Assembly: GCA_000002435.2 (NCBI GenBank)
Contig: CM018791.1
From: Giardia intestinalis
Lineage: Eukaryota
Reading direction: 5' to 3' (one strand)
Length of the DNA: 64,000 bases
Shown here piece after piece: positions 7,492-57,789 of the stretch. Below the pieces are notes generated by a model. That model saw nothing but the letters and a program-made list of their open reading frames with translations. It ran no database searches and had not been told where the DNA came from. Each line of letters starts with the position of its first letter. Within the stretch, counting starts at the first letter, position 1. Made by a program: the position numbers and the translations under genes.

Positions 7492-7493
7492 AT
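7487..7493 (+). promoter_or_regulatory. putative poly(A) signal AGTAAAT overlapping the CCT zeta stop codon
   Basis: In gacgAGTAAATcag the TAA stop (7489..7491) is embedded in the AGTRAAY heptamer. Confidence 0.45.
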
Positions 7494-7570
7494 CAGTTCC
7501 CAGATACCACGTTCTGAGCAATGTAACACAGTGTAGCACGGTACAAAAAAGTCTGGTGCCTTTGCAGGGG

Positions 7571-18174: not shown

Positions 18175-21100
18175 CTATGACATAGAATCCCTTATCTCTA
18201 TCAACGCTTTGAGGCTCCCACTTGGCTCCACAAGACTCTGCGCGACTGCATGGGCAATGTCGTCCACAATGGCTGGGCTTCCACGGGGCTCTTTCCCAAT
18301 CTCCTCTTTCTCTCCTTTCACTGTATAATTAAAATAGTACGTAAATAATTTAACAATGCAATCTGCCAGGCATGCGAACAAATCATAAACAAATGTATGA
18401 AGAAGAGTCTCCCCGCCAGTGCTGTCAAGAAGTAAGATCCTTTGATACTGATGGACAGTATAGTTGGAGAAGTGTCGGATAACTGTGCCTACAGCCGAAG
18501 AGCTTTTGTGCTTGCAAAGAGGGAGCTTGATGAGTATGTAGACCAGAAAGAAAAGCCTTAATAGAGTGTCGTGCCAATCACCCTCATCGTGCTCAATAGG
18601 CAACTCCAGGCAACTGAGGGCGGTGGAGATAAATAGAGCATCAGCATCTCTCTGCTTAGGCACCCCGATTGCATCAATTTCAAGAAACAGAAGATTATAT
18701 AAATCTGTAACTACTGCCATGGGAACCTGGATGGATTGAAGAATGGCTTCCACCTGATCCTTGCCTGCAATACTTTGCACAAGGGCCTTCCACTCGTCAG
18801 TTGTAAAGAGTAGTTGCAACGCCTTCTCAACAGCAACAACACACATGACCTGCTTAAAAACCGTTAGAGATAGAGTAAGAGTATCTAAGACATCTTCGTA
18901 GACGATGATCATCGCTGAGGGCTTATTGTGTGCATAGCATGCTGTGAGCTGAAATGCCAAAAGGTTTGGTACTATGCCTTCAGGAAGCATGAGCTTGCTC
19001 GCAATAATCTGACGCACACAGTAAAGGACGTGCACGATGGTCTTTGTAGTTATACTGCTGTCGTCTGATGAGGAGGGGAAGAGGCCTCTAAAGTAATACC
19101 TACCGAGGATTATGTGGCAGTATGGTAGTATTGTATGCACAAAGCGTTTATGGATGTGCAGACGTCTCTCCTCCACCTTGGCAGAAATGTACACACCCAC
19201 TAGCGGTCGTTCATGGTCTGTCGTGGAAGACGGTGACTTCAATGTAGAGACTGACAATGATGCCAGAGAGATTTTGGAGTCTGAATCTGTATCCTCTGAT
19301 ACAATGGAGGAGCAAACGCTAGAAGCAATATCGTCTGTGCTGAAGGTACCAAAGAACTTCCCTGTGGCATAGAAAAGTGCATCTGCGATCAATGGATGCA
19401 GTGAGGGCTGAGAGCAATCTGCTTTTAGGGTAGCGAGCATTGCAGTAGCGTCGTCAGTAGATTGGATGACCATAAGGGGAAGCGCACCCAAAAGGGTATA
19501 TTGACACACAGCTAGGAAGTGAGTCAGGTCTGGTGCCGCCATTCTAACTGTTACTAAAAGGCGAAGAACATAGGATGTTGGGGTGGAGTAAGCGATAGGC
19601 ACCCCGTCTTCTGTCGCCTTGTTGTGAAGGTGAGGAAGCAAGATCCTTATAAGTACAGCTCGAATATTCTCTTTACCTTTTTCACTGAACTGGGTGAAGC
19701 CCCGCGCCACAAGTGCCAAGAGGTATAAGTGCTTGGCAATAGACCGGGTAGTTGTGGAGGCCATGCTCATGTCATCATTCAGGTGGGCACAAATATAGGC
19801 TAACTCACTCGTCTCTTTTAAATATCCCGCTTGCACCAGCAACCTACTTGAGCTAACACAGGTTCTAGCGTATGCTTTACATAGTATGTGAAGGCTCTGT
19901 GCACCACTATGCGCAGACCCCCTATAGAATAGATCCCATCTAGCATACTGCGTAAGACACGAAACCACATGCTCAATAACGTGTACATCTGCTGCGTCGA
20001 TCATAAAGCAGAGTAGTGACATGATGCTGCTGTACTGATCAAGCAGATTTCCCGCTGTCATATGTACACCGGAACCACTCAGCTCTTTACCCTTCTCTGC
20101 ACCAAAGAGACAATGGATATGTATCCTTGCTCCCAGAGCGATGACACGGAAAGCGTATGTTTGGAAAAGTTTTCTATGCTCATCGCTTGCAATGTATGCT
20201 TCAATCCATGCTGCAGCAGACTCTGTCAGTACTGTACACTGGAGAATGTTTGGAAGAATGTCTGTAAGCATGCGTGTAATAGATAGGAGCATATTTGCAG
20301 CAGAATCTGCAGAGCAAGTAGTGGTATCAAGGCCGCGTCTAGTTTGCCGCACAAACCTTGCCTTGGGTCGCAAAACCTCAGAGCGGTTAGGCTTGCCATA
20401 AAGCGGTACGGCTTTGCATTTGACCTTCGGCTCTAGCTCAATAGGAACGTCTGTGTTGTTCCTGTTTATTAAATTGCAGGGGCACTGATCTTTCTGAGAA
20501 ACACAGAGAGGCACTACATCATCTCGGTTATCACCTAGCTCATCTGCCAGGATGATAGACAATCCGCAGAAATTAAAAAAGATAAGTGCCAGTGTAGTAT
20601 CTGAAAAGTGAGAAAATAGAATAGCATCGGCTGAAGCGCTTGCTTGATCGTGACAATTGGCAGTGCACTTGGGAAAGTTGAAGAGAAACCCGTGCAGGCG
20701 TCTCAGCACTTCTCGTTGGAGGTCTCGTAAAATTACTCTGTGCTGATCTCCTAGACTGAGCACAGCGCGGAAGAAGGAACTAAGTCTATTCTCATTTTGA
20801 CTTGTAATGCAAATCAGAAGGCCTGCAGACCTGTTAATACTATTATTACCGTGTTTCCACACTGTCCCGATGGGTGGGAGGGTCGCGCGCATGGCTGGCA
20901 GAAGTATGGAGGTTATCCCCACGGCCACTGTGCTATCTCTAGTGAAGATCACTATGCTCATTATCACGGTCATGATGGTGTTAAGCTGCACGGCCAGAGA
21001 TGCTACGGATACTTGTGACTCTACGTAGTAGCGGTCAACCAAGAGCACAAACAATTGAACGACAGACTTTATCAAGGCAAGCGATCCTGTTGTTCTGAGC

Positions 21101-23205
21101 AGATCCTTCAGCTTTGGCAGGAGGCCTAGCTTAACGATATAGTCCGGAAGAAACCGGCCGTTCTGAATGGGTTCTGCAAGAGATGTTAAGGATGCATCGA
21201 GAAGAGAAACAGACGGGCTTACGCTGCTAATCGTCCCGATGTAGATGTCCAGCAAGCAAGAGTCAATGTCCTGTAAGAGGCCTGTTGAAGTATCTAATGA
21301 TACGGAAGCGTCCGCGTGATTATTCTTAGCCAATTGTAATGCACCGGAGAGACGACTAAGCAAAGATATAATGTGAATTTGCAACTGAACATTCTTGGAG
21401 ATAATGGAGAAGAAAGACAAGAAGAAACTAAGCAGCTGGGAGCTGCACTGTTTGGCCTGCGTAGAAGAGTCATCACGCAAGGCAAGAAGAAATATAAATC
21501 CTAGCATGTCGAGCATCAGACGAATAAACGTTGTAATTGCTTGATTAGATAATTGAGCGCTACATTGTCTGTCACAGAAAGAAACAATTATTGGAGGCAG
21601 GTCTCTCCATAACACAGAGGCACCACTAGATAACAGTGCCAATTCGAACATATACTGATATGAAAGAGCGGTAAGGCCAGCCAGAGAATCCTTCATGGAA
21701 GTCTTCTGATTGGTAATGATTGCCAGCTGTTGCAGGAGTGTCTGGAGGACCACTTTTGGATGGACCGTGTGAGAGTTTTGAAAACTATTAGATGATATTA
21801 GTGTGAGAAGCTTTGTTAGCACAAGTAAAACAGGTGGGGGTTTGAAAGTAGCTTTTGGCAAAACGACAGTTCGATAAAGGAGTAGGGGCTTATATAACTC
21901 ATCTTTAACACTCACTGTTACGTCCACTGCGTGCTCTAAGATGCTCTGGATCAGCTGCTCTGCGGAAGACCTGCTTATGGTGGAATTCTTGGTACCAGCG
22001 GTGAATGGATTGAAAAGAACCTCCAGCAGAAGCATAGCCGCCTGATCATCTTCCAAGAGTAAGGAGAATATTGACGTGGCATCCGTGCACACAATTGAAG
22101 GAGTGTTTTTGTTGCCAAGAATATCTAGCAAAAGGTGAAGCTGACGATTCAGTAAGTCACAGCTGATATCTGCGATGAAGTAACGCTCATATAAAACGTC
22201 CAAAGAACGGGTTCCCAGGATTACCTGACAGGCACTGGAATAAAACATTTGAAGAGACTTAACGGCAATCTCCAATAGGGCTGACTGTTCGTCAGGGGGG
22301 CAGACAGCATTCTCAGTGTCACCAAAGATGAGCACAAGGGAATCGGTGTACTGAAGTAGCAGAGACTCGGCCTCCCTTGTCGTAAAGGTTGGTAAGAGTG
22401 GCTGATTCGCCGCAGCCTCCTGTTGCCTGAGCTGTACGTATAGCTCCATAGAAACAGAAAGATGTAAAAGATCTATAGATACAATTTTGGCTTGCAACGA
22501 TATGTTAAGTCCATCAAACACATCCTTTTCGTCCTGCTGGTGAGGATCAAGAAGGGGTTTCCACTGTGTTTGTGATAATGTTGAAGGACGATGCTGGACT
22601 ATCTCTTTCCGCAAAGATATAAGGTCTTGGAAAATCACCGTGAGTTGACTAGCAATCAAGGTCTGACTCCATTGTGAAGACACGAGCATGTCACGTACAG
22701 AGTCGATAGCATCTTCTAAGCGTTGAGCGAGAGCCTTTGGACCGCAGACCTTATTCTCTTCGGAAGTGAACCTGAAGGTAGGGGTGTCGTATTCTGTCTC
22801 GCTAAGGACAGCAATTGATACGTCGGAAGTCTGAAACCAGGCTGGTCGATAGCTTATATGTAAAGACGAGTCTTGAAGGGATACCTCAACGCGAGGTGGA
22901 GGTTGCTGTAACGCTTGAGTGCACGGTTGAAGAATTTGTGCATTCAATAGAAGGGTGCTGATGGGATCATTATCTACGTTAGCAGGTGCATGAAGTATAT
23001 ATGGCAGTGTCTGTGCAAATCTTTTCAAGCTTCCAAGGGACTGTGCAACTTGCTTGCAGCCAGCCGATACGGCTCCAGTTGGAGAGCGAGCAACGCACTC
23101 TGGAATAGGCACACTGCAGAGGGCGGGCAGGCGCAACATAGAGATTCGAGCAGGAGCCCGCAGAATAGTATCCCTACCATACACTACATTTTTAAGTATT
23201 AGCAT
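18175..23205 (-). CDS. very large hypothetical protein (about 1676 aa), likely an alpha-helical repeat architecture
   Basis: Uninterrupted ORF. The track start is a GTG at 23211 and the ATG is at 23205 (MLILKNVVYG...). I recognise no catalytic motifs. The leucine-rich, helix-prone composition is typical of HEAT/ARM-like scaffolds. Confidence 0.55.
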   Translation of the reverse strand: MLILKNVVYGRDTILRAPARISMLRLPALCSVPIPECVARSPTGAVSAGCKQVAQSLGSLKRFAQTLPYILHAPANVDNDPISTLLLNAQILQPCTQALQQPPPRVEVSLQDSSLHISYRPAWFQTSDVSIAVLSETEYDTPTFRFTSEENKVCGPKALAQRLEDAIDSVRDMLVSSQWSQTLIASQLTVIFQDLISLRKEIVQHRPSTLSQTQWKPLLDPHQQDEKDVFDGLNISLQAKIVSIDLLHLSVSMELYVQLRQQEAAANQPLLPTFTTREAESLLLQYTDSLVLIFGDTENAVCPPDEQSALLEIAVKSLQMFYSSACQVILGTRSLDVLYERYFIADISCDLLNRQLHLLLDILGNKNTPSIVCTDATSIFSLLLEDDQAAMLLLEVLFNPFTAGTKNSTISRSSAEQLIQSILEHAVDVTVSVKDELYKPLLLYRTVVLPKATFKPPPVLLVLTKLLTLISSNSFQNSHTVHPKVVLQTLLQQLAIITNQKTSMKDSLAGLTALSYQYMFELALLSSGASVLWRDLPPIIVSFCDRQCSAQLSNQAITTFIRLMLDMLGFIFLLALRDDSSTQAKQCSSQLLSFFLSFFSIISKNVQLQIHIISLLSRLSGALQLAKNNHADASVSLDTSTGLLQDIDSCLLDIYIGTISSVSPSVSLLDASLTSLAEPIQNGRFLPDYIVKLGLLPKLKDLLRTTGSLALIKSVVQLFVLLVDRYYVESQVSVASLAVQLNTIMTVIMSIVIFTRDSTVAVGITSILLPAMRATLPPIGTVWKHGNNSINRSAGLLICITSQNENRLSSFFRAVLSLGDQHRVILRDLQREVLRRLHGFLFNFPKCTANCHDQASASADAILFSHFSDTTLALIFFNFCGLSIILADELGDNRDDVVPLCVSQKDQCPCNLINRNNTDVPIELEPKVKCKAVPLYGKPNRSEVLRPKARFVRQTRRGLDTTTCSADSAANMLLSITRMLTDILPNILQCTVLTESAAAWIEAYIASDEHRKLFQTYAFRVIALGARIHIHCLFGAEKGKELSGSGVHMTAGNLLDQYSSIMSLLCFMIDAADVHVIEHVVSCLTQYARWDLFYRGSAHSGAQSLHILCKAYARTCVSSSRLLVQAGYLKETSELAYICAHLNDDMSMASTTTRSIAKHLYLLALVARGFTQFSEKGKENIRAVLIRILLPHLHNKATEDGVPIAYSTPTSYVLRLLVTVRMAAPDLTHFLAVCQYTLLGALPLMVIQSTDDATAMLATLKADCSQPSLHPLIADALFYATGKFFGTFSTDDIASSVCSSIVSEDTDSDSKISLASLSVSTLKSPSSTTDHERPLVGVYISAKVEERRLHIHKRFVHTILPYCHIILGRYYFRGLFPSSSDDSSITTKTIVHVLYCVRQIIASKLMLPEGIVPNLLAFQLTACYAHNKPSAMIIVYEDVLDTLTLSLTVFKQVMCVVAVEKALQLLFTTDEWKALVQSIAGKDQVEAILQSIQVPMAVVTDLYNLLFLEIDAIGVPKQRDADALFISTALSCLELPIEHDEGDWHDTLLRLFFLVYILIKLPLCKHKSSSAVGTVIRHFSNYTVHQYQRILLLDSTGGETLLHTFVYDLFACLADCIVKLFTYYFNYTVKGEKEEIGKEPRGSPAIVDDIAHAVAQSLVEPSGSLKALIEIRDSMS

Positions 23206-23216
23206 TTTCACATTGG

Positions 23217-24905
23217 ATGGTCCTCTGGCTACTCCTCCTCGCGCTTACTACATCTGCATACCTCCCCAGCAGGATGCTCGTCCTGTACGACGGCCCGGAG
23301 ATCGCGTCTAAAGACCTCCAGCTCATCCTGACGGGTGCTCGGATTGCTTCTCGTTCGATGCGAATGGATGACCCTAAATTTAAACTTCCGAAGCTTGTAC
23401 TTGATGGAGTCCCCCAGTACTCTCATATAGCCATCATTGGTCGGGGGAACCATCTGACTGCAGAAAATTATAATGAGCTGCTTAAATATGTGGAGGGAAC
23501 ACTCGATCCATACAGCTCCAAGTTGACGGAGGACGAGAGAATGATTCTTCCGACGTCTAGCAGCGATAGATGGACCACAGCGATGAAGTATCCTACAGAG
23601 TATGTCTATAAAGGCATCTTTGAGCCGCTGCCAGGAGCATCTATTGCAATATTCACCGACGCACATGCTTGCCAGAGGCTTCTCAACCTACTTAAAAACC
23701 TGGGTATGAAGGCCATTAGGAGCACCTCTTCTGAAATGGGGGCCCTCAAGCTCAGCACGGCTTTGAAGGAGAAGCTGTCTCGTGGGGAACAATCTGGGTG
23801 TGACATTATAGGTGACGTCAGCTATAAGCCTCTAAAACAGCCTTTGTCAGATATACTCTCATTTACCCCCAACTTCCTTTCAGATGTACAGAAGGCACAT
23901 GAAATATTCACATTTGAGAGCTCCTCCCGTGAGCTGACCGCAGGACTGGTCTGGCAAGGCCTTGAGAACAATGCCCGGGTGATTGCGATAGGCTTTCTCG
24001 GTGCCTTGGCTGACACGACCATGATGATGAGCAATGCTTCTTCAGAGCAATACTTTAAGGAGTGGAATGCTAAAGAGGGAACAAACCGCAGCATATATGA
24101 ATACAGCACCCTTCCCGAAGGCTCTATCCAGGCATTCTATCAGCTAAGTCGCTGGTTTGGGTTTGCAAAGTGCATGTTACGCGTTTCTGTTCTAGATGCG
24201 CGGCCAGTTCAAGACCCATCAGGATGTGACAACACTGTTCCGGCTCAGCACGGGGAAGCTCATGGAAACACAGCTGTGGTTGAAGGAAACCTTGTCCACT
24301 ACATTGTCAAGATAGAGGAGCTAGTTAATAATACGCTTTGGAGACCTTATGTCCCCAAAAAGACTGCGGTACGTCTGGACGAACTAGTGACAAACAACGC
24401 CCGTCGCCATCCAGAAGACTATGGCCTGTTTCCGTCTGAAACACGGCAAATCAAAAAGCAAATATCAGCGCTGTCTAGCGGCCTGTATAGCAGGTGTCTT
24501 CAATCCGCCCGCAAGGACTTGATCAATCAGACACAGGACATTACCGTGACGGACGCTCTTTCCTCCATATACACAGACATACAACTGCATGAGTCCATCA
24601 TGGGTACTTTAATATCTATGAATTTAGCCCTGCTGGACGAGAAGAAAGGTCTCTTTGATTTGGTGATCGTTCCAGATCTGGTTAGGTCCTACCACATGAG
24701 ATTAGATTACAATGTTCCTGGATATAATAGAATCAAGCTCATCCACCACCTGCACGTGAACATGGACCGCACAGATGCTTTCTATAAACACTATGCCGAT
24801 TGGCCTCTGTTTGTGGGGCTGGGGTGTGTACTTCTATTGGCCGTGTACGCAGGAATACTGCTTCTCACACACAAGGAAACGCGTACGGAAGAAAAGGAAG
24901 AGTAA
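23217..24905 (+). CDS. OST48/WBP1-like type I membrane protein (candidate oligosaccharyltransferase 48-kDa subunit)
   Basis: It has an N-terminal signal peptide (MVLWLLLLALTTSAYLPS) and a single C-terminal TM (LFVGLGCVLLLAVYAGILLL) followed by a short K/E-rich tail (THKETRTEEKEE). RMLVLYDG matches yeast Wbp1 RTLVLYDQ. LSRWFGFAKCMLRV matches human LSRWVFKEEGVLRV. RLDYNVPGYN matches human VDYNRLGY and yeast DYRKIGL. The KE-rich end matches human ...HMKEKEKSD. All comparisons are from memory of those sequences. Confidence 0.6.
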   Translation: MVLWLLLLALTTSAYLPSRMLVLYDGPEIASKDLQLILTGARIASRSMRMDDPKFKLPKLVLDGVPQYSHIAIIGRGNHLTAENYNELLKYVEGTLDPYSSKLTEDERMILPTSSSDRWTTAMKYPTEYVYKGIFEPLPGASIAIFTDAHACQRLLNLLKNLGMKAIRSTSSEMGALKLSTALKEKLSRGEQSGCDIIGDVSYKPLKQPLSDILSFTPNFLSDVQKAHEIFTFESSSRELTAGLVWQGLENNARVIAIGFLGALADTTMMMSNASSEQYFKEWNAKEGTNRSIYEYSTLPEGSIQAFYQLSRWFGFAKCMLRVSVLDARPVQDPSGCDNTVPAQHGEAHGNTAVVEGNLVHYIVKIEELVNNTLWRPYVPKKTAVRLDELVTNNARRHPEDYGLFPSETRQIKKQISALSSGLYSRCLQSARKDLINQTQDITVTDALSSIYTDIQLHESIMGTLISMNLALLDEKKGLFDLVIVPDLVRSYHMRLDYNVPGYNRIKLIHHLHVNMDRTDAFYKHYADWPLFVGLGCVLLLAVYAGILLLTHKETRTEEKEE

Positions 24906-24908
24906 AAT

Positions 24909-27287
24909 CTATCGTTTGACATTTCTCCGGAAGCTCAGTTTGGTAGTCTGCGACTCCGCCTTGGGGATCTCTTTAGAGACCTGGGAGACGACCTCAAGTG
25001 GTGTACCAATTGCTAGCCATCTGTTGAGTTTGATCATGCGCTCACTAACTTCTGTACAGCAAATGGCAGTGGCTTTGTTGGCTATTATAATGCTGTGGTT
25101 GTACACTAAGAAATTACTCGTGGTGCCTGTACATGAGGACTTGCCAGAAGGATTCACAATAGCTCCAGAGAAGAGTGTGCGAAAGCCGCTGCTGGTACGT
25201 TGAGCAACTGTCATGTGACTCGTCAGTGCAAGGCATAGTTTGATAATGTCCCCGGTCTCCGCAGCCAGGGACGTGTCGGACATAAGGTCTGGAAGCTGCA
25301 CGTATGAGCGTAGAAACTCAAATAGGGTATCTTTATGGAGCTTGAGGATCTTGTCCAAGACATCCTCCAGTTGACGAGCAACCTGATTAGCCTGGTGGTA
25401 GCTCTGGGAAGCCATACCTGTCTTTGGCAGTGGACCCACTAGAGCATATAGGAGAGAAAGGTGATCTGACCCCTGACAAAGAAGTGGCGCGCTGCTGGCA
25501 CCTAGCAAATCATCCCAGCCAACCTCAAGGCCTGCAGCAATCAGACAGGCCTCTCTCTGAACACCGTAATAGTATGCAACCATTAAGAAGAGCGCAGTCC
25601 TGGGAGAAACAGGTAACAGCGTGGCAGCAAGACCAGCTACCGAAATGCACAGTGTTGGTTTATGTGTAACTGAAGATGACCTGGCCGTCGTCAAGAGGTA
25701 AGTATAGTACAGTATCTGCTTAGTTAATGAGAGCTTAGCAGAGTCTACTAGATCAAGTAGATCGGTAGTCTCGAGACAGAATGAAAACGATGGAAAAGAC
25801 TCCTTGAATCGCTGCGAAAACGACTGCAGCATCAGATATATGTGATCTATGGGCTCGAACTGGAGCGATGAATGTGGATTGATAAGCATCTCGTTCTCAG
25901 CGACATACTTTGGATAGAGGAAGATGCATGTGCCGTGCTGAGTGCGCCCAACACGCCCTCTCCGCTGCATGTGCGATGACATGGTGATGGGTACAACCAC
26001 CAATACGCTTGTGCTGTGCTCAGGAAGATACACCATCCGCTTTTGAAGGCCCGAGTCAATCACATACCTGATTCCAGGGATTGTCACGGAGGTTTCTGCT
26101 ACATTGGTGGCCAAGATGATCCTTCGCCTGCCAGTAATTGGGCTGAAAGGATACATAGCTTGCTGAGCAGGGATTTTGGAGTGGAATGGGATGACTACCC
26201 ATGGCCTCCCACCCTGCTTTCCAGCCCCTAACACTGACAGTCGCTCCCATAGAAGGGCAAGGCAAACTGCTATGTCATCTGCACCGGAAAGAAACACCAA
26301 GATTCCATCATCCAGGGAGGTATTAGTGGTATGCAAGGTGACAATCTCGTCAACAATCTGCAAAATGTAGTCCTCTCTGCATGGTTGGAAGGATACGTCT
26401 GTTGAATACTGTGGATTGTCTAGTGAGATGGATGTAGAGGCAGTGTATCGACGAACATATTGCAGCAGCTGGACCTCATCCAAGGTTGCAGACATCAAGA
26501 TCACATGTACCCTAGGGTTGTACCTGATCACACGAAGCACTATAGCTAGAAGTAGAATCTGGTTACTGGAGCGCTCGTGGATTTCGTCCAGAATAAGATA
26601 TGATACGTTTAGCAAACATGGGTCATCCAAGAGGTATTGCAGGGTGACACCATCCGTCTGGTAGATCAGCTTGGTCTCAGGCGTAACCGTTGATTGAAAT
26701 CGGACCGCGTATGCAACAGCCTGACGAAGATTGCCCGGTAAAGCTTGCTGCTGGTATCCTGCAAGACTGATAGCAGCCACTCTGCGTGGCTCAGAGACGA
26801 TGATCCTTCCTTGTGGCTCGGTACTAAGCAAGGCAGCTGGAATACAGGTTGACTTACCAGAGCCAGTCGCCCCCTTAACAAGAACCACTTGGTTGGAAGC
26901 CAGCGCTTTTTGCAATGACGCGAAGTAGGTCCAATCCTTACCCAGCTGTGGGCCGCAGGAAAGACTTTTAACGGCCCGCACAGAGGAGGAGAGCGTACTA
27001 TTCTTACAAAGGTCTGCCAAGAGTTGCATGTTCTTGCTATAATATCGCTGTACTTTCTCTCCAAGTGCTGAAGCGTGTTGGTCAACTACGGAGCGCGAGT
27101 GTATTGACCTTTTGAGGAGCACTGATCCTGGGTCACGTATCACTTGAAGGTCGAGGTTGTGCAGTGAAAGAGACGTGTGCTCTTCCTCAAAAAGCTCATG
27201 GTCACGAATGAACTGAACGCACGGCCTCATGAGTCTGTTAAATAAAACAGGATTTGGTGAGACATGGCTCGTCCACATACCGCTCAT
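24909..27287 (-). CDS. DEAH-box ATP-dependent RNA helicase
   Basis: Motifs present: motif I GATGSGKST; motif II LILDEIHERS; motif III SATL; FLSGADDI; ATNVAETSVTIPGIRYVIDSG; motif VI QRRGRVGRTQHG. ATG at 27287. Its first 8 codons overlap, on the opposite strand, the start of the 27264 ORF. Confidence 0.85.
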   Translation of the reverse strand: MSGMWTSHVSPNPVLFNRLMRPCVQFIRDHELFEEEHTSLSLHNLDLQVIRDPGSVLLKRSIHSRSVVDQHASALGEKVQRYYSKNMQLLADLCKNSTLSSSVRAVKSLSCGPQLGKDWTYFASLQKALASNQVVLVKGATGSGKSTCIPAALLSTEPQGRIIVSEPRRVAAISLAGYQQQALPGNLRQAVAYAVRFQSTVTPETKLIYQTDGVTLQYLLDDPCLLNVSYLILDEIHERSSNQILLLAIVLRVIRYNPRVHVILMSATLDEVQLLQYVRRYTASTSISLDNPQYSTDVSFQPCREDYILQIVDEIVTLHTTNTSLDDGILVFLSGADDIAVCLALLWERLSVLGAGKQGGRPWVVIPFHSKIPAQQAMYPFSPITGRRRIILATNVAETSVTIPGIRYVIDSGLQKRMVYLPEHSTSVLVVVPITMSSHMQRRGRVGRTQHGTCIFLYPKYVAENEMLINPHSSLQFEPIDHIYLMLQSFSQRFKESFPSFSFCLETTDLLDLVDSAKLSLTKQILYYTYLLTTARSSSVTHKPTLCISVAGLAATLLPVSPRTALFLMVAYYYGVQREACLIAAGLEVGWDDLLGASSAPLLCQGSDHLSLLYALVGPLPKTGMASQSYHQANQVARQLEDVLDKILKLHKDTLFEFLRSYVQLPDLMSDTSLAAETGDIIKLCLALTSHMTVAQRTSSGFRTLFSGAIVNPSGKSSCTGTTSNFLVYNHSIIIANKATAICCTEVSERMIKLNRWLAIGTPLEVVSQVSKEIPKAESQTTKLSFRRNVKR

Positions 27288-29009
27288 CCATATGTCACAG
27301 AGCTGTGCAATGGGTCGTATATGTTGCTAGAGTCGCCCCAGCTCATAATAGGTAGAAATAGTGACAAAAGTAAGCCCTGGGAATTGGCCGACAATAGGCT
27401 TCTCTTGCCCTACCAGGAGCTGAGCCGGGCACATATCGGATTATCATATGATGGTCACAATCTCGAAATAACCAACCTTGGGCGCAACAGAATTGTCATT
27501 TTACTCCAAACTTGCGACAGCAATGGTGGCAACGGTGATAGTGAGGAAGCATGTCCCAGAAAACAGCTGATAATGGAGCCCAAAAACTCTCTGGAAAGGG
27601 TGTGCTCTCCCTGCATTCTTTCTATTCATCCACACTCGTTCAAAGATCACTATGGAACATACTATTATGGATGCCCTCTTTTTCCTCCTCTATGCATCGT
27701 TCCAATAGGTGGTATGGTCGCTCGTGCATTTCAGATGTTAGAAGAGATTGATACTTTGCTGTCCTCTTCGACTTTGCAATCCAATCAATCTACTTATCTA
27801 AATATTATTTTCAATCGGTACAGCCACTCAAAGTTGGTGCTAGCGGAATTTGTCGATTGCACGAATCCGCAGATTCTTGGGCCGTTGCTGGACGGAGCCA
27901 AGAAGTTGGTTGACTTAGAGCCATATTATACTACCCTCATCGATATAACTACTTGTCTCCACGAAGCAAGAAGTGTACACGGCCTTGAGCTCCCAATAGA
28001 CCTAGATATCTATAAGTTCGAGAAGCCACCATGCTTTCCAGAGCACCAGCATGCATATGAAAAGGTGTGCCCGCAAGAGTGTCACACACCCATAGAGTCT
28101 ATAGATCATGAGCAGCTCACCGAATTTACAGACTTCTTTTTAACAGATGTAACAATTCTTTCCATAAATGCCAATCTGCAAAGTCTATTTGAGACTACCC
28201 TACAATACACTACCCTACAAGCTCCCCCCAGTATTGATGTTCTTGAGTGGGCGATCACTGGCTTGACACCTGTCCTAGAAGATGGCCGGCTTTGCTGTCA
28301 CCCGGACATAGGTCGGTTAAAGTCCTATTACAGCAGACACAAGTACCTTCTAATAGTGTACGAAGGAACCGAATCTTCAACTTGGGTAGACGCCATTCTA
28401 GAACCTGAAGCAGAAAAGAATGTATTGTTTGCTCTGATAAGGAGCTCACTAGGCACGGAAAAGCCGGTCTATATTATGTCTAAGAAGCAGTTCTCTGGGT
28501 TTCTCTACTATCAGAATTCTGGGGATATATCATATTTCCCCTTTCCACCCTCACGGGCCTACAGATCCTCCTCTAGCACACCTCCCACTTTGGTAGCAGC
28601 AGCGACAGAATCTACAACTAAGGCGATTAGCTCCGATGCTGAAGCAAGTAAGGAGCCGTGTCTCCGGCAATCAACCTCTCCGAGCATTCCACAATGTGCA
28701 AAGGAAAATGAAGAAGTAATTGATATTTCTGACAGCGAAAGCTCACAGCCCAGCTCTGAGGCTAGGGAAGCAACACGTCCATCTGCATCACAACAACCAC
28801 CCCAGCTTCTGGACTTGCCGAATTTTAGTGAGCGCAGGGTAATAAAGGTGGATCTCCCCGTAATGAGGATTATCAACGGGTACGGCGTTGTGGATTGCGA
28901 CGACATTTCGATGTCTGTCTGGCGTGCGCTTGTAGATGCCCTTAATAGCGACGGTCCAGGACCGTGCCTTGCTCTCCGGTTGCATGAGGATGACGCTGGG
29001 CAGGCGTAG
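27264..29009 (+). CDS. hypothetical protein with a possible N-terminal FHA-like domain and a Ser-rich acidic C-terminal tail
   Basis: The ATG at 27264 overlaps the helicase 5' end by 24 bp. The next in-frame ATG is 27321 (MLLESPQ...). IIGRNSDKSKPWELADNRLLLPYQELSRAHIGLSYDGHNLEITNLGRNRIVIL resembles FHA core elements (GR...SRxH...N-L-G-x-N). The C-terminus is S/T/E-rich (SDSESSQPSSEAREATRPS). Confidence 0.5.
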   Translation: MARPHTAHPYVTELCNGSYMLLESPQLIIGRNSDKSKPWELADNRLLLPYQELSRAHIGLSYDGHNLEITNLGRNRIVILLQTCDSNGGNGDSEEACPRKQLIMEPKNSLERVCSPCILSIHPHSFKDHYGTYYYGCPLFPPLCIVPIGGMVARAFQMLEEIDTLLSSSTLQSNQSTYLNIIFNRYSHSKLVLAEFVDCTNPQILGPLLDGAKKLVDLEPYYTTLIDITTCLHEARSVHGLELPIDLDIYKFEKPPCFPEHQHAYEKVCPQECHTPIESIDHEQLTEFTDFFLTDVTILSINANLQSLFETTLQYTTLQAPPSIDVLEWAITGLTPVLEDGRLCCHPDIGRLKSYYSRHKYLLIVYEGTESSTWVDAILEPEAEKNVLFALIRSSLGTEKPVYIMSKKQFSGFLYYQNSGDISYFPFPPSRAYRSSSSTPPTLVAAATESTTKAISSDAEASKEPCLRQSTSPSIPQCAKENEEVIDISDSESSQPSSEAREATRPSASQQPPQLLDLPNFSERRVIKVDLPVMRIINGYGVVDCDDISMSVWRALVDALNSDGPGPCLALRLHEDDAGQA

Positions 29010-32644: not shown

Positions 32645-35600
32645 ATGCCTGCCCCCGATCTTCGGGCTCAATGGATCATTGAAGTGGTATCCATGTACCT
32701 GCAGTATTCCCAGGTTGATATTGAATGCCTGATAGTCGACGGAGGGCAGTACTCTCCCCTGCTCCACAGCTTTTTCGATTGTACCTTGAACCATCCTGCA
32801 CTCTATTTCTATACACATACAGAAACAGGACAGCTCATAATAGCCTCAGATCCTCCCCAAGCGACAGCAAAGTATCTTCTCTACATGGTTCACAGACCCC
32901 TCGGGGATGACCAGGGCTTCTCACCCATTCAAGAGCCCGAGGGGCCCGATGGGCCATATGCCGACCTTACCGATGAGGTTCGGTGTGAAATATCCCAACG
33001 CCTTGATATTTCTTTGATTTCTGGCAATGTCCTGAGCTCTCTTGCAACTTCTCTCCAGAATCAGTATTCCCCGCTGGTATCTGCGGGAGACCCCGAAATA
33101 ATGTTTCAGTCGCGTAAGCTGGCTGTTGCTGCTAGCGCCGCGGATGCACAGCTTTGCTCCAAGTATGTTATTGAGGTCCCCAACTTGGACATTAGCGACC
33201 CGCGGGTTGCTGCTCAAGACGCAGCGATCGTTTCAACGGTTCAGCGGCTCTTTGAAGAGTGGGTTCAAGTCCTGCAAGCAGCAATGGAAGAGTATGACCG
33301 GCTAAATCCTGCTGGCGACCTTCCGATGGCAGAGTTGGAGAGCTGGCGGAAAAAGTCGGCTCTTCTCTCTAATCTTTACGAAGACTTGTGCTCACCACAG
33401 TTCAAAAAGCTCTTTGCTGTTCTGGAGTATTCGCATGCCACTGTATTCAGCGGCTTCAGTCTTTTGCGCCAAGATGTTGCACGCGCCTGTCTGGAGGCCA
33501 AGGACAATGCCAGATTTCTTAGCACACTAGAGCGTCACTTCAAGATGATCAGCAGGTCGCCTCTTCCAGCACTTTCAGAAACTATTACTAGTCTTTACGC
33601 AGCCTTGCGCATGGTCTGGACTATATCGCGCTACTATAATACGGAGGACAGACTCCTTCCGCTGATGCATCGTATTGCAAAGCACATTACGGCTAGAGTT
33701 CGCTCGTCGATCAACATCAAAGAGCTATTCTCCAGTAGCTCTCGGAACGCGGCCATACTTAGTGGATTGGCTGGCCAGAATTTCTACGGCCAAGGTGCCA
33801 TCGAGGCCCTTGCCACCAACGCCAGCGAGGCCCTCGGCAGCAGTACTTTTATGGATGCTGGGAGACGGTCCTTAACGAAAGTATCTAGCTCCCAGATCAT
33901 TCCAACAACTTCTACAAGCGATAATTACACTCCCATTGATATACTTCATGCAGCTGGGCAGGTTCTTACCAAGTGGAAGGCCCAGTACAATGAAACTAAG
34001 CAGAAGATAGAGGAATCAACAACAGACACAAAGCGCTGGGAGCTCGACAAGCGCGTCCTCTTCGGGGAGACAGATTTTCATTTGGCCCGCGTGGAGACGC
34101 TGATTGGTTGCGTCCAGTCCGTCATGGAATTTTCGCAAATTATCTCCCCTGACGTGCAGCGCGTCATAGGGGATCAATCTGGATTACGTGAAGTCAGGAA
34201 AGCTATTTCCGAGCTTCCGAGTGAGCTTATTGCGTTTGATCAGAAGATTTGGTCTCCGTCTCACACTACGGAATTTGAAGCGCTCCTCAGTAACTTTAAA
34301 GCAAAAGTATCCCAAACGGAAGTTAAGGCTTTCTCATATATTGACAGGTCGTTCAAACGCCTGCGTGATGTGTCCAGCGGTCTCGAACTGGTTAGCCGTC
34401 TGAGCCTCAAAACTGCTTCCGACACCTCTGAAGCACGGGGGACAGCAGCTACAACGATATTATCCAACCATATGAGCGGAAAGATCGAGGAGACCCTTCG
34501 CCAATATTGCGAGGAGCTCCAGCGATCAATAAAGGAATTTGAGCTCAAAAAGGATCAGCCACCGATTGGGATAGATCTACCTCCACTTGCCGCTAGCGTG
34601 GTCTGGGCCCGATCTCTCTTTGTCGCTGTTAAAGAACCGTATAGAATCATGCGTCAATTGGGAGACGACGTGCTAAAGGCTTCTCAGGCTGCCGCTGAAG
34701 CTACTGCTCTTTTCAACGAGCTTGCGAGCAACCTCAGGACGTTCGAGCAGAAGCGTTTTCAAGCATGGCGTGTTGATGCAGATGCCATTATCCTGAAGAG
34801 TCTTCGCTCTCCTCTCCTGGGTGAAAAACGAATCTTATCTGTGTCAGATCTCAGAAAAGCTAGCCTAGATCCCGATGGAACATTCCTTCCAAAGCTAGTG
34901 ATACCGAATCTGATGGCAACATGTGCTATGCAAGGGACCGGTCAGCTGACGACAGCTGTTCCGGCAAACTCTAAAGACAAAGTGCGGCGCTCTACAATTA
35001 GACAGAGTATACCAGATAGTCTTCCACAGCACGCAGCATATGCTGATATGACGGGAGCCACGTACCTGAGCCCCACAGTCACCTCATTGATCCTCAAGGA
35101 ATACGGTCTCGAGATGTGCGTGAATTTTCCACCTGAGCTCAATGCACTTATAGACGAGGTATCTGCGCTGGATCGTCTTGGCTTCCGTGTTGGGGAGACC
35201 GCACTCAATGTCTGTCTTCAAAAGGCCAAGTACGAGACCCACGCAGAGGGTCTGAAGATGCTTATTTCTAGTTTAAATAGTGCACTCCAGGACTTCCTTC
35301 CGTTGGTTGCGGGTTCCACTCCCGCTATGGTGTCAGATATAAAGCGCAAAGCCAACTCCATGGAGCTAATAAGAAAGTCAGTATCTAAGGCAGCCGTTGT
35401 TATTCGCCCTGGCTTTGGTCCTCTGAACTGGAACTCACTTTCTGTGGACGACTACCTAGAGCGGGCGCTCTCTGCCTGCTCTGAACTTTCACAAAGCTGC
35501 CAGCAGATTCTTAAGACAATCATGCTAATGGAGCAGTGCATAAAGGGTATCACAAATACCCGACTCATCCCAACCCAGGCCGCTCTTCTTCTTGCAGGGG

Positions 35601-38600
35601 CGTCTACCAATGCTCCCGCCCCAATTACTGAGTCTGGCGCCGGTGGGGCCTCCACTCAGTTGGTTCCACCCGGATCTAACTCATCTGCCGCCGGCGAGCA
35701 TAAGCCAACCATTGCGGAGATAATGGCGCGTGCAACACAGCTGAAGAAGAAGCAGCAATTAGAAGGGAAGCGGCCAGACTCACCAACAACACTCTTCTTG
35801 GCCGCCCTAAAATCTTTGGAGGCGCGCGGAAAGATGGGAACTGAAGAGGAGTACGAGTCTATCCCAACCATGAGCCTCCCTGAGTTTAGCTCTCGTCTCG
35901 AAGAGTTTCGTGCCAAATCTCTAATGGGGAGTCTCGAGAAGTATTATTCTCTGGGTCCGCTGCTTGTTAAGATTGAAGAATTGTCCTTCGGCACCTCTAC
36001 AGGAAAGTGTCCTGGGTTGCGCACGTACTATGAGTATTGGACAAATCGTGTCTATAACGCTCTGGTTGTCATGATAGGAACAGCTCTAAAGGACTTCTCT
36101 ATCTTGCTTCGTGGGGTTAACACTCAATCTGAGCGTGATTCGGCAAAAAGAAATAGCAAGTATCTCAGAGATAGATACACACCCCTTTTTCAACTCAATC
36201 TCAGTCTCTCGTCGCCAGAGATTATCGTTACACCTTCTCTCTCGTCAATTCTCAACACGCTCAATAACCAGGTTGAGCAACTGGTTAAGGTAGCGTGCCC
36301 GTTCGTCATCTGGATCCCTGGCAGTATTGCGATGCATGAGCCGGAGCCGGCGACGTCTGCCACAGGGGCTGAGATATTATCTACTGATGAGAACGCCACA
36401 TCTATTCGCCGCAACGAGCTCTATGGATTTAAACGGAAGACGACTAAGCAGGGCGATGGACAGGATGTCGTCGACGCTTCGTCTACAGAGGAGGTTGTCG
36501 TGCGCTCCTACAGCCCAAGAGTCTCTCAACACTCAACCATTACAATGTTGGCCACCCAACTGAAGTCAAAGATCCAGTCTTCCATCCTAGACATTCAGGA
36601 GTATATCCGCGCATGGTCCCATTATGAGCAGATTTGGAAATCAAATCGTCTGCCCATTGTCGGCAGGTTTGCTGCTCTTTCGCCCAATGCCAGCACCTTC
36701 GACTATGTGCTGAGCTTCTTCACAGCAACAATGGATGTTTTGAAAGATGCTCATAAAGAAAAGATGGCCATATACACCGATATACAGGCAGACACAGTGG
36801 AAGCAGAGGCTCTCACTAGCGCCAATGACATGTCCAGGCCTTCACGACCATCTACGACAAATCGACCCGGAAGTGCTGCTAGCGCAAGCGGTAAGAGCAC
36901 TACCAAAGATACAGCGGATGGAGATCCTCACGATAGCGAGTCGCACACGTCTATCCTTCCCACAAAGAGGCACATGTACCTTTCGAGCAACTACATTTAC
37001 ACTATGTTTAATTTAACTGCAGCCAACGACAACTTGATTGACGCCATACCGATTAATAACAGCATATCGATCCATCCTCCCATTAAGGTTCTTTTTAACA
37101 TAGCGGTTTTGCATGCAAACAGCCTTGTCAAGTCTATCATTCACGAGTGCCAGTTGTGGCGCGAGGCGATATGCAGAGCCATCATTGAAAAGGCCCGCCC
37201 AATGCTGCTGGATAGCTACAACGAGATAGATGAGGAGTTCAGAAATTGCGTGGCACAGGCACGGGACTTAGAGTCCCTCAAGATTGTTCTTTCCACCCTT
37301 CGCCGCGTTGCAAACAGGACCATGTCCATGGAGCTAACCTGGCTCGAGCTAGAGAGTCTCTTTGCCTTGCTTCAGGCGTATAATGCAGAGGTGCGGATCA
37401 AGTTCGATAAGTCCCTTCTGTCTGGATCTCCAAATCGCGGCAGTCGTGTAGGCAGTCCGACGCGTGGCAGCAACACTAGTCCACAGCTAACAGCTGAGCA
37501 GCTTGAGCAGCGTAAGCGTGACGCGGCTCTTTACTCTGCCCTTCAACCATTTGTTCTGGAGTTTGAGAACGATGATCTGGGACCAATCTTAGACCAAACC
37601 GACCTAGGCTGGTCCGGCTCGTCTCTCAGAGAACTTATTAATCTATCGGATACAGACCCGCGACTATGCAATGCAGAAATAGGGGTTGCTTTGACCTCTG
37701 GCGCAGGTGGTGCAGGCACATCCCTCACTTCATCGCTGGAGAATCTGACAATATTTACCTCTACAGAAGAGGGTGCAGCCGCCATGGCAACCGCCGCTAA
37801 AAGCAAGAAGGCCATGAAGACAACGAATGTTCGCGTCTTTGAGCAGGAAATTCAGGCTGCATACGCCATTCGCTCGCGCTGGGCGTCTTTGCTTTCCATC
37901 GTGAAGGAGGTAGATAGACTTCTAGTTGAGATAAAGCGAAAGCAGGCAGAGGAAACAACCAAGCTTGCCCGTGTATTTGAGAAGGAAATGCACGCGTTCG
38001 TGAAAGAGTTTAACGAAGAGGGGCCGTATCACTATTTGTCTGTTTACTTTGAAGAGGTGGCTCAGCTGGAGCAGGAAGGGAAGAAGCACACTAAGACGCT
38101 GACGGATATTCTTGAGGACGTGTTCGAGTTGTACAAGGCAAGCAAGGAGAAGTTTGGCGCTATCGTTGTCAAGAGAGACACTACTATTTTGGCCCAGCGG
38201 CTCTTCAACCTAGATCCAATCAACTCTATGAGTCTGACACCTATTGAAAAGGAGCTCGATGCAGAGGGGGCAATCCTAGCGATCTATGATCAGGTTAGGC
38301 AAACTTTCAAAGAGTGGGATCGGCTCTACTTTTCGTCTCTTGATCCCTCCATGCTCGAGACAGGATGTGATGGGATGCGCACCACGCTACGAAGACTTCC
38401 AGCCGAGTACAGGTCCCACACTATGTATGAGACCCTAGATACTATTCTGCGGAACTACAAAGACTCAATACCGCTATTACAGGACCTCAGGAATGATGCC
38501 TTGCGTGCCCGCCACTGGTTGCAGGTCGAACAGCTTACAGGCCAGACGCTCTTTAGTAATGCAGAGCAAGCCCAGAACCTAACCCTCGGACAGCTCACGT

Positions 38601-51285: not shown

Positions 51286-51368
51286 TTTATTTTCTGATAG
51301 ACCATTCCCTGCAGGGACGGCGGTCCGTAAGGAGGCAGGGAAAGTTTTAGACTTCCTAAAAAACAAAA

Positions 51369-54496: not shown

Positions 54497-54497
54497 G

Positions 54498-54511
54498 GCG
54501 CAGATTTGGGC
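54498..54511 (+). promoter_or_regulatory. histone promoter motif GCGCAGATTTGGGC (H4 copy 1)
   Basis: 34 to 47 bp upstream of the H4 ATG at 54545. It directly follows the PIG-V-like stop codon. Confidence 0.6.
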
Positions 54512-54544
54512 TAAAAAAGAAGACGCGGGAAGGGGCAAATAAAA

Positions 54545-57487: not shown

Positions 57488-57789
57488 AAGGGGATTTTTG
57501 GCTCTTTCTACGCCATATGAGCATAATGTGTCCCTCACCAAGACACTAGTTAATTGCAACCGAGAGTCACCTTGTAAGATTCAGCAGCCCCTGGGGCAGT
57601 CAGGCTTTTCAAGAAAACGTTCCCTTGGGCTTTGATGGACCATGGCTAAGTCAGAGCAAAAGCGTAAGATAATAGCGTGTTTATCTCTCCAGCGGAAAGA
57701 CGCGTTGCACCATTGACGCCCAGGCACATCTCCGAGGCCACTTTCTTGGTCTGTCGTACTCGGACGAGCTGCACGGAGTCTTGGCTGGC

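Follow-up and report, generated by a model that had tools for sequence, protein, structure and literature searches.

The stretch of Giardia intestinalis DNA analysed here (64 kb in length, hereafter the window) contains an ATG-to-TAA open reading frame at positions 23217..24905 (+) that, in the ORF listing of the window, comprises 562 codons plus the TAA stop and codes for a protein of 562 aa. Its translation is identical to XP_001704720.1 (GL50803_6617, UniProt A8BUM7) of G. intestinalis WB C6, confirming the origin of the window from Giardia that the initial annotation had inferred; this protein is currently annotated as "hypothetical" and is "uncharacterized" in every source compared. On the basis of the ORF listing, this exact identity and hhalign comparisons, we regard it as a complete coding sequence for a homologue of OST48/Wbp1, a subunit of the multi-subunit oligosaccharyltransferase (OST) of yeast and humans. 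Reading of the flanking sequences revealed an AT-rich stretch, TTTTTAAGTATTAGCATTTTCACATTGG (23186..23216, +), directly 5' of the ATG, which is a likely short promoter/initiator of the Giardia type, common to the divergent upstream gene. Overlapping the TAA stop there is an AGTAAA motif (24901..24906, +) that resembles the Giardia polyadenylation signal, and that presumably acts as such. Comparison of assemblages A, B, and E gave dN/dS values of 0.050-0.061, indicative of strong purifying selection, and GL50803_6617 is a real, functional gene; the synteny around it is kept in P15.

The initial annotation had ascribed the full OST48 architecture to this ORF, and this was borne out by hydropathy, by the sequence and by published SignalP, TargetP and TMHMM predictions: GL50803_6617 shows type I topology, in which a signal peptide and a large luminal region are followed by one C-terminal transmembrane (TM) helix and a few tail residues rich in K and E. 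In the alignments, the hydrophobic N-terminus (MVLWLLLLALTTSA) matches the position of the signal peptide in canonical OST48 proteins; the signal peptide region (residues 1 to approximately 19; 23217..23273, +) has the hydrophobic core LWLLLLALTTSA and is probably cleaved after TSA14. In a published table, the protein is SignalP-positive and has TargetP "secretory" (S) scores, and the TMHMM call agrees with these (PMC3044749). The luminal part starts with an alpha/beta domain equivalent to OST48_N (residues 20 to approximately 300; 23274..24116, +), with a GATase1/GIFT-like fold and the blocks LVLYDG, YSHIAII, PGASIAIFTD, and ENNARVIAIGF. Inside it, alignment and pLDDT delimit a fornicate-specific insertion (insertion 1, residues 95-137; 23499..23627, +) that is not present in canonical OST48, has the highest pN among the luminal segments, and is mostly of low confidence in the structural model (pLDDT <50 at residues 114-137). 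A second insertion (insertion 2, approximately residues 273-300, SSEQYFKEWNAKEGTNRS...; 24033..24116, +) is, in the alignments, present in the G. intestinalis assemblages only, being missing or shorter in Giardia muris, P0005, P0126, Spironucleus, and Dysnectes.

The second luminal domain, a beta-sandwich equivalent to OST48_MD (residues 301-528; 24117..24800, +), was assigned by domain-only hhalign and by the Pfam matches of orthologues, and contains the blocks LSRWFGFAKCMLRV, VHYIVKIEELVNNTLWRPY, TDIQLHE, and VPDLVRSYHMRLDYNVPGYNRI. It harbors insertion 3 (residues 379-451; 24351..24569, +), a helical segment of approximately 72 aa recognized in the alignments, in the hhalign comparison, where the canonical template is left unaligned, and in the model, which places helices at residues 387-394, 399-402, 406-421, and 423-438. 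Dysnectes and Spironucleus carry a short version of this insertion, and Giardia species the longest; its residues Y424 and C427 are nearly invariant. Residues 452-528 constitute the most constrained segment (pN = 0.005, A-E). The single TM segment in the Kyte-Doolittle profile, WPLFVGLGCVLLLAVYAGILLLT (approximately residues 529-551; 24801..24869, +), reaches a 19-residue maximum of 2.64 at 531-532, no other segment exceeding 1.6, and coincides with a helix at 529-551 in the model. Its small-residue face, L-A-x-Y-A-(G/S/A), is conserved, L541 being invariant and A542 and A545 conserved at >=90%. The cytosolic tail consists of 11 residues, HKETRTEEKEE (residues 552-562; 24870..24902, +), and is K/E-rich like that of the human protein (...KEKEKSD); the yeast tail ends in ...KKTN. 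The canonical di-lysine signal for ER retrieval (C-terminal KKXX/KXKXX) was sought in this tail and was not found, since the final residues are ...EEKEE, which place a Lys only at -3, and in this GL50803_6617 differs from human OST48 and yeast Wbp1. With 562 aa versus 456 in human (PDB 8b6l_N) and 430 in yeast (PDB 6c26_B), the protein is 106 and 132 aa longer owing to the three insertions, close to the excess of 110 to 130 aa estimated initially.

In direct sequence searches, the 562-aa protein had no match at E <= 10 in Pfam, NCBIfam, or PDB sequences, and GL50803_6617 itself gave no direct significant match to Pfam OST48_N (PF03345) or OST48_MD (PF23358). The initial annotation had named the lack of a family profile hit first among its grounds for abandoning the OST48 idea; on these scans alone, this idea would have been wrongly dropped. 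Besides sequences from Giardia, the first homologue search retrieved only a single relative, of 36% identity, and single-pair BLASTP against human DDOST gave E = 2e-4, and E = 0.033 for another segment in collinear order. Identity to canonical OST48 is 17-21%. Using an HMM built from canonical OST48 only, GL50803_6617 scored 9.6-10.9 bits and ranked first among 300 ORFs of the window; we take these approximately 10 bits as the reason why published surveys overlooked the gene, and not as evidence of family membership.

An alignment of the fornicate family (A2) was matched with one of canonical OST48 sequences (A3), drawn from human, yeast (Wbp1), and metazoans, the human and yeast reference sequences of which were verified against PDB. 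hhalign aligned A2 and A3 end to end (columns 1-532 of 535 versus 1-434 of 436, 413 aligned) with 99.1% probability and E = 1.1e-18, and a Giardia-only alignment versus canonical OST48 still gave 96.6% and E = 6.5e-10. A family HMM run against 5.8 billion (5.8e9) sequences matched OST48 proteins carrying the two Pfam domains (E = 9.2e-11 and 6.5e-9); this search and the A2 versus A3 comparison both revealed full-length collinearity with the human and yeast proteins. The short motifs that had been noticed initially in common with human OST48 and yeast Wbp1 turned out to be real and collinear in the alignment, those in common with canonical OST48 being LVLxD, YxHxxI, NNARV, LSxWxFxxxxxLRV, IExLxxxxWxP, D(I/V)QL, and PDxxxx(F/Y)xxxxDYNxxGY. 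Trimmed, shuffled, and reversed controls showed that the score is not driven by the hydrophobic ends of the protein (signal peptide and TM helix): with both removed, the luminal part alone scored 92 (E = 1.1e-11) across both domains (24-361 versus 28-306), whereas 20 column-shuffled templates scored <=22.8 and the reversed template 17.4. Real profile-profile scores (92-145) stood well above those of shuffled (<=23, n=20) and reversed (approximately 17) templates, so the resemblance to OST48 is more than chance. Taken alone, the middle domain scored 64.8 (E = 6.2e-10, 96.6%; best shuffled 19.9) and the N-terminal domain 35.8 (E = 2.2e-4, 45% probability; best shuffled 26.3), OST48 homology of the latter by itself appearing modestly supported; cross-domain controls failed to match.

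To the Giardia profile, the orthologues of G. muris (P0127), Spironucleus, and the free-living Dysnectes (P0129) had E values of 1e-124, 1e-30, and 1.6e-25, respectively. On Pfam OST48_MD, the Dysnectes protein scored 47.5 bits, exceeding the cutoff of 27.9, G. muris 27.5 bits against the same cutoff, and P0005 had E = 0.002; on OST48_N, the orthologues gave E = 0.08-0.28 only. UniRef automatically names G. muris GMRT_11437 (A0A4Z1SVU0) and S. salmonicida SS50377_20677 (V6M0F6) as the OST 48 kDa subunit, an independent naming in favor of the orthologue; they belong to the same family. The G. intestinalis protein bears this name in no source, and it differs from these two in having insertion 2 in addition and insertion 3 in its longest form. 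That Giardia species, Spironucleus, and Dysnectes have the family in common points to vertical inheritance from a fornicate ancestor. Chance or compositional similarity of a lineage-specific orphan ORF, due to hydrophobic ends and a few short motifs, might be invoked from the lack of direct Pfam, NCBIfam, or PDB sequence matches and the modest pairwise BLASTP value, but it is refuted by the full-length and luminal profile-profile scores, compared with which shuffled and reversed templates stay at background level, by the database-wide HMM matches to canonical OST48, by the Dysnectes orthologue above the Pfam gathering threshold, and by the first rank of GL50803_6617 among the window ORFs, and we give it practically no credence.

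The AF2 model of GL50803_6617 (pLDDT 81.2, pTM 0.79) has the OST48/Wbp1 fold, with a GATase1-like N-terminal domain and a beta-sandwich middle domain. In a Foldseek search of PDB, the six best matches were OST48/Wbp1 chains without exception (E from 3e-17 to 7e-15) and the seventh had E = 1.5e-4, so the structural comparison proposed at the outset also pointed to OST48. The fold match and the evidence from sequence are not independent, because the MSA behind the model included canonical OST48 sequences; an AF2 model from a 6-sequence, Giardia-dominated, family-only alignment had pLDDT 39 and was discarded without being used for the fold search. The GATase1/GIFT-like N-terminal domain would also suit another member of that family (IFT52/GldG-like or ThuA-like), the resemblance to OST48 then reflecting a common fold only. 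However, matches to the IFT52/GIFT and GATase1 families cover approximately 190 residues, in the N-terminal domain only, and only Wbp1/OST48 align over approximately 350, middle domain included. It is the OST48-specific middle domain that gives the strongest sequence signal (E = 6e-10, and Pfam OST48_MD matches in orthologues), and the combination of signal peptide, C-terminal TM helix, and K/E tail matches OST48, not the cytosolic IFT52. These families were rejected as the true home of GL50803_6617, an assignment we judge highly improbable; IFT52 GIFT and GATase1-like/ThuA-like domains, without the OST48 middle domain, signal peptide, and TM helix, would be kin at the level of the fold only. 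Profile-profile comparison, intermediate sequences, and structure support the initial annotation, which had rightly kept two alternatives, an OST48 orthologue or a protein with the fold retained for another role; as judged from sequence, homology of GL50803_6617 to OST48/Wbp1 over its full length is solid, if highly divergent.

Published inventories bear out the premise that Giardia has been described as STT3-only (PMC2064103; PMC4973528 Table 1), and likewise Spironucleus. Giardia, the textbook case of a minimal N-glycosylation pathway, consisting of Alg7/13/14 and STT3 and transferring GlcNAc2, has been placed beside kinetoplastids among the organisms with a single-subunit OST (PMC2064103; PMC4973528). 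The same surveys did not detect Ost1, Ost2/DAD1, or Swp1 in Giardia (PMC2064103; PMC4973528); they also missed GL50803_6617. Among the large ORFs of the 64-kb window no other OST subunit was found (neither Ost2/DAD1 nor Swp1/ribophorin II). We found no paper on OST48/Wbp1 in Giardia or other diplomonads, most subscription journals being outside our coverage, so that this absence is not proof. The initial description of the protein as previously unappreciated thus stands for G. intestinalis, whose protein is unnamed and without a paper that we could find, but not for the G. muris and Spironucleus orthologues, and novelty is limited by the automatic OST48 names that these bear in UniProt.

GL50803_6617 has the same topology and collinear conserved blocks as human OST48/DDOST (PDB 6S7O_G, 6S7T_G, 8B6L_N) and yeast Wbp1 (6C26_B, 6EZN_G). 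Apart from its low identity and the lack of a direct Pfam match, it differs from them in that the partners Swp1/ribophorin II and Ost2/DAD1 are undetected in Giardia; yeast Wbp1 joins Ost2 and Swp1 first, and then STT3 (PMC9701220). A further difference concerns the donor glycan. Tyr383 of yeast Wbp1 stacks on the terminal glucose of the donor, in the Glc3 pocket (PMC9701220). Canonical OST48 proteins have Y or F at the corresponding column without exception, whereas in the fornicate family it is F in G. intestinalis and S/N/A/R/G/K/Q/D in other members, so the Tyr is not conserved. We regarded the Glc3-pocket aromatic as a functional feature of OSTs with glucosylated donors, not as defining for the OST48 family. 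The donor in Giardia is GlcNAc2-PP-Dol (PMC2064103), and the apparent loss of conservation of the glucose-stacking Tyr fits this GlcNAc2-only donor.

GL50803_6617 is expressed: five unique peptides, with a Mascot score of 350, were recovered by proteomics from a membrane fraction (PMC3044749). This fraction was mitosome-enriched, also contained BiP, PDIs, and Sec61, and was demonstrably contaminated by ER proteins; STT3 was looked for among the proteins reported for it and is not listed (PMC3044749).

We consider it reasonably probable that the non-catalytic OST subunit OST48 (DDOST)/Wbp1 has its Giardia orthologue in GL50803_6617, which most likely is still located beside STT3 as a scaffold. 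It would be a type I ER membrane protein with a cleaved signal peptide, a luminal GATase1/GIFT-like domain, a beta-sandwich domain, a TM helix, and an 11-residue tail. In the ER membrane, where it most likely adjoins STT3, its TM helix and membrane-proximal middle domain would form a structural scaffold stabilizing STT3, possibly via a still-undetected DAD1/Ost2-like partner. The role shown for yeast Wbp1, forming the pocket that receives the donor's terminal Glc3, has probably been lost: the Giardia donor is no more than GlcNAc2-PP-dolichol, and the lineage does not conserve the Tyr that stacks on glucose. After descending vertically from the fornicate ancestor, the family would have diverged fast and gained the three insertions, and this fast divergence would have hidden it from BLAST and HMM surveys.

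Alternatively, GL50803_6617 might be a true OST48 homologue that was repurposed, the OST being functionally STT3-only and the protein performing another luminal job in the ER or secretory pathway, possibly as a chaperone, in a lectin-like capacity, or as part of a different membrane complex, through both domains and the helical insertion. In favor of this reading, surveys detected Ost1, Ost2, and Swp1 neither in Giardia nor in Spironucleus (PMC2064103; PMC4973528), but such partners may have escaped through divergence or small size, exactly like GL50803_6617. It also gains from the extreme divergence from canonical OST48, the three insertions, including the helical one within the middle domain, the non-conserved glucose-binding Tyr, and the tail without a di-lysine signal; however, the strongest constraint falls on the membrane-proximal half of the middle domain and on the TM helix with its conserved small-residue face, the parts expected to pack against other OST subunits. 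Recovery from a mitosome-enriched fraction points in the same direction as repurposing, but is offset by the ER contamination of that fraction. To our knowledge, no OST48 has a primary role independent of STT3. Taking both sides together, we regard repurposing as unlikely. Tentative, and less likely than not, is a broader proposal: GL50803_6617 may bind STT3 directly in the absence of Ost2 and Swp1, constituting a new minimal two-subunit eukaryotic OST, or, if unbound, may provide an OST48-fold function independent of STT3.

For the orthologue with a scaffold role, the most plausible model by analogy would be the four-subunit OST (STT3-OST1-OST2-WBP1) predicted in Trichomonas vaginalis and Entamoeba histolytica (PMC2064103). 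Trichomonas, a fellow metamonad, and Entamoeba have truncated, non-glucosylated donors, yet they kept WBP1. Their WBP1, OST1, and OST2 are easily detected by sequence, whereas in Giardia only STT3 was, OST1 and OST2 being unfound, and their donor is Man5GlcNAc2 instead of GlcNAc2. Kinetoplastids (Trypanosoma, Leishmania) have a single-subunit STT3 OST, the class to which Giardia was also assigned; given the constrained OST48 homologue, Giardia and other fornicates may fall outside this class.

A conserved and expressed OST48/Wbp1 homologue implies that the OST inventory is incomplete for Giardia and other fornicates, and other subunits that are small or evolve fast, DAD1/Ost2 above all, may have escaped notice as well. 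A practical outcome is the re-annotation of GL50803_6617 and of its orthologues in assemblages B and E. Reconstructions of OST evolution need a second look, together with the reported correlation, proposed to reflect co-evolution, between the presence of WBP1/OST2 and how long the A-branch of the donor is (PMC9701220). Fornicates retain OST48 under strong purifying selection despite a lipid-linked donor free of mannose and glucose, and offer a natural experiment on the role of OST48 without a Glc3 to recognize, the function of the non-catalytic subunits being a long-standing question. If direct binding to STT3 without Ost2 and Swp1 were true, the ancestral role of OST48 would not be recognition of the donor glycan, which would contradict that co-evolution proposal (PMC9701220).

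The ORF at 23217-24905 (+ strand) of the window runs from ATG to TAA and codes for a 562-aa protein, GL50803_6617. Over its whole length the translation matches XP_001704720.1, KAE8303340.1 and UniProt A8BUM7 of Giardia intestinalis WB clone C6 without a difference, which bears out the initial inference of Giardia as the origin of the window; all sources label the protein "hypothetical" or "uncharacterized". The initial annotation ascribed to this protein the architecture of OST48 (human DDOST, yeast Wbp1), a non-catalytic subunit of the oligosaccharyltransferase (OST), and this was borne out: it has a hydrophobic N-terminus (MVLWLLLLALTTSA), a single strong hydropathy peak (WPLFVGLGCVLLLAVYAGILLLT, approximately residues 529-551) and a tail of 11 residues (HKETRTEEKEE), with Lys at -3 only and no KKXX/KXKXX signal. 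A published proteomics table lists it as SignalP-positive, TargetP "secretory" and containing one TM helix (PMC3044749). The excess length claimed over the animal and fungal proteins was measured as 106 aa relative to human OST48 and 132 aa relative to yeast Wbp1, using reference sequences identical to PDB 8b6l_N (human, 456/456) and 6c26_B (yeast, 430/430).

BLASTP of GL50803_6617 against human DDOST gave a weak pair (244-405 vs 242-388, E = 2e-4) and a second, collinear segment (472-506 vs 367-402, E = 0.033); the link to OST48 becomes clear once relatives of the protein are added. Homologue searches retrieved orthologues from assemblages E and B and other Giardia at 83-93% identity, together with one relative at 36-40%. 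An exhaustive HMM search seeded with the alignment of these homologues yielded, besides several fragments, the proteins P0126 (579 aa, E = 1.5e-147), P0127 from Giardia muris (GMRT_11437; 524 aa, E = 1e-124), P0128 from Spironucleus salmonicida (447 aa, E = 1e-30) and P0129 from the free-living fornicate Dysnectes brevis (462 aa, E = 1.6e-25). The Dysnectes protein matched the Pfam OST48 middle domain at 47.5 bits (E = 2.3e-12), above the gathering threshold of 27.9, the G. muris protein lay at that threshold (27.5 bits), and P0126 and P0005 gave sub-threshold matches to the same model. P0005 (565 aa; gene 7001-8698 of locus L001, Logan SRR14944320) shares 36-40% identity with the G. intestinalis protein. 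P0126 is similarly distant, so that the two are roughly as remote from G. intestinalis as the G. muris protein, and their gene neighbours (TTL, Bystin) are unlike those in the window. Both probably derive from Giardia-like diplomonads, themselves unsequenced, that are represented in public read sets.

Profile-profile alignments, whose E-values refer to single comparisons, matched the ten-sequence family to 13 canonical OST48 sequences at full length (99.1%, E = 1.1e-18, score 144.7), with signal peptide and cytosolic tail both included in the alignment (columns 1-532/535 vs 1-434/436). The Giardia-only alignment also matched canonical OST48 (96.6%, E = 6.5e-10, score 79.9). After removal of the signal peptide and TM/tail from both sides the match persisted (97.4%, E = 1.1e-11, score 92; controls 22.8 for the best of 20 shuffles and 17.4 reversed), as it did for the middle domain alone (96.6%, E = 6.2e-10, score 64.8; best control 19.9); the N-terminal domain alone gave a modest signal (45%, E = 2.2e-4, score 35.8; best control 26.3), and cross-domain controls stood at 0.2-0.3% (E = 0.23-0.37, scores 14.0-14.7). 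Searching 5.8 billion proteins with the fornicate-family HMM retrieved two canonical OST48 proteins bearing both Pfam domains (E = 9.2e-11 and 6.5e-9). These trimmed, shuffled and reversed controls, domain-alone comparisons and database-wide matches exclude chance similarity, and the data also exclude membership of another GATase1/GIFT family. The short motifs initially said to be shared with human OST48 and yeast Wbp1 are present, and all conserved blocks line up in a joint MAFFT alignment (canonical/Giardia): TLVLLDN/MLVLYDG, YxHLIIF/YSHIAIIG, LQARNNARVVFSGS/WQGLENNARVIAIGF, LSxWVFKExGVLRV/LSRWFGFAKCMLRV, IExLxxGKWxPF/IEELVNNTLWRPY, DVQLEF/TDIQLHE and LPDVYGVFQFKVDYNRxGY/VPDLVRSYHMRLDYNVPGY. 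The OST48/Wbp1 interpretation of 23217-24905 was upheld as homology, and GL50803_6617 is almost certainly an OST48 homologue.

AlphaFold gave an unusable model from a shallow Giardia alignment (pLDDT 39), and a model with pLDDT 81.2 and pTM 0.79 from a 36-sequence alignment comprising the fornicate family, two bridging sequences and canonical OST48. With the latter as Foldseek query, the top six PDB matches were all OST48/Wbp1 chains (E = 3e-17 to 7e-15, target TM 0.59-0.62), and the best match after them had E = 1.5e-4. The structural match is consistent with the sequence evidence, yet not independent of it, since canonical OST48 was part of the alignment.

GL50803_6617 is a working gene. In codon alignments with L002 (assemblage B) and L003 (assemblage E), dN/dS was 0.050, 0.054 and 0.061; the most constrained stretch (residues 452-528, pN = 0.005 for A-E) is the half of the middle domain next to the membrane, with the PD...DYN..GY block. 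The L-A-x-Y-A-(G/S/A) face of the TM helix is maintained in Giardia species and Spironucleus, and this small-residue face suggests helix-helix packing. The protein is expressed: five unique peptides (Mascot score 350) were reported in a membrane fraction with BiP, PDIs and Sec61, the last shown by the authors to be ER contamination of this fraction (PMC3044749).

P15 has the same order of genes, with a large unknown ORF followed by the OST48 homologue and then the DEAD-box helicase. In the window, the first of these (18175-23211, - strand, 1678 aa, no Pfam match) lies divergently to the OST48 homologue; the orthologue in P15 has an annotated length of 1653 aa, which would put the start of this ORF some 80 bp away from the 23217 ATG and leave the two genes with a very short, AT-rich intergenic region in common. 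Within 24903-24911, the stop of the OST48 homologue (24903-24905, + strand) lies 3 nt from the stop of a DEAD/DEAH-type helicase ORF that converges on it (24909-27287, - strand), with an AGTAAA motif overlapping the former, so the 3' ends of both transcripts must overlap. The window (about 48% GC) is extremely tightly packed, with a TCP-1 subunit, kinesin, eIF5B, kinase-ankyrin proteins and PheRS also among the flanking genes, as well as a complete dynein heavy chain in an uninterrupted 5550-aa ORF (32645-49297, + strand; DHC_N1, DHC_N2, AAA modules 1-6, MT stalk and Dynein_C). A 381-aa ORF (53351-54496, + strand) matches Pfam Mannosyl_trans2 (PIG-V/Gpi18-type GPI mannosyltransferase II, E = 1.5e-18), which adds a further glycoconjugate-pathway enzyme to an organism that reportedly lacks every ALG mannosyltransferase. 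A perfect inverted duplication (54439-55808 and 57714-59083; 1370-nt arms, 100% complementary, 1905 nt apart) coincides with the window's two GC-rich blocks. Through it, the C-terminal portion of the kinase-ankyrin ORF (54845-57559, - strand), made up of ankyrin repeats, is present again as a separate 298-aa ORF (57781-58677, + strand; 297/298 residues identical); the duplication may be recent, or may reflect gene conversion or an artefact of assembly. Another six large ORFs, of 222-1080 aa, lack any Pfam match at E <= 0.001 (9262-12504, 49294-51390 and 62322-62990 on the - strand; 27264-29009, 80-1522 and 59438-60658 on the + strand) and, judging from the outcome for GL50803_6617, may likewise be strongly diverged members of known families.

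The extra length of GL50803_6617 sits at four sites: an insertion in the N-terminal domain (residues 95-137, low-confidence in the model), one specific to G. intestinalis (approximately 273-300), a loop longer than in canonical OST48 (approximately 331-350) and a helical insertion of about 72 aa inside the middle domain (379-451), which reaches its greatest length in Giardia and is short in both Dysnectes and Spironucleus. In yeast, the terminal glucoses of the donor sit in a Wbp1 and Ost2 pocket, where Wbp1 Tyr383 stacks on the terminal glucose, and the presence of WBP1/OST2 has been proposed to correlate with A-branch length (Ramírez et al., PMC9701220). The Tyr383 column is invariantly Y/F in canonical OST48 and holds F, S, N, A, R, G, K, Q or D in the fornicate family, an absence of constraint that fits the GlcNAc2-PP-dolichol donor of Giardia (PMC2064103).

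GL50803_6617 has the topology of a type I membrane protein, most likely resident in the ER, and is best read as an OST48/Wbp1 orthologue inherited vertically within Fornicata; it most likely serves as a scaffold, a structural partner of the catalytic subunit STT3 rather than a reader of the donor glycan. That it works as an STT3-associated subunit seems to us somewhat probable, the contact with STT3 being one that we infer. The main rival, a repurposed OST48 homologue beside a Giardia OST that is functionally STT3-only, appears unlikely, though it draws on the insertions, the unconserved Tyr383 equivalent, the tail devoid of a di-lysine signal and the failure of published surveys to detect Ost1, Ost2 and Swp1 in Giardia; these subunits, however, may be masked by the same divergence that hid GL50803_6617.

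The STT3-only description of the diplomonad OST, given in the initial annotation, matches the literature: G. lamblia was said to lack genes for non-catalytic OST subunits (PMC2064103), and a 2016 survey listed Stt3 only, without Wbp1, for both Giardia and Spironucleus (PMC4973528, Table 1). No report of OST48/Wbp1 in diplomonads was found in the full-text literature searched, and the sole paper found naming GL50803_6617 enters it as a hypothetical protein. The orthologue was accordingly unappreciated, as proposed, for G. intestinalis and in that literature, but not for G. muris, whose UniRef name is "Oligosaccharyl transferase 48 kDa subunit", nor for Spironucleus, also OST48-named, presumably through automatic annotation; the family assignment was implicit in databases for these two relatives and missing for G. 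intestinalis. GL50803_6617 is a missed orthologue, not a new kind of system. It corrects a widely repeated OST inventory, and its presence in Giardia bears on the ancestral role of OST48.
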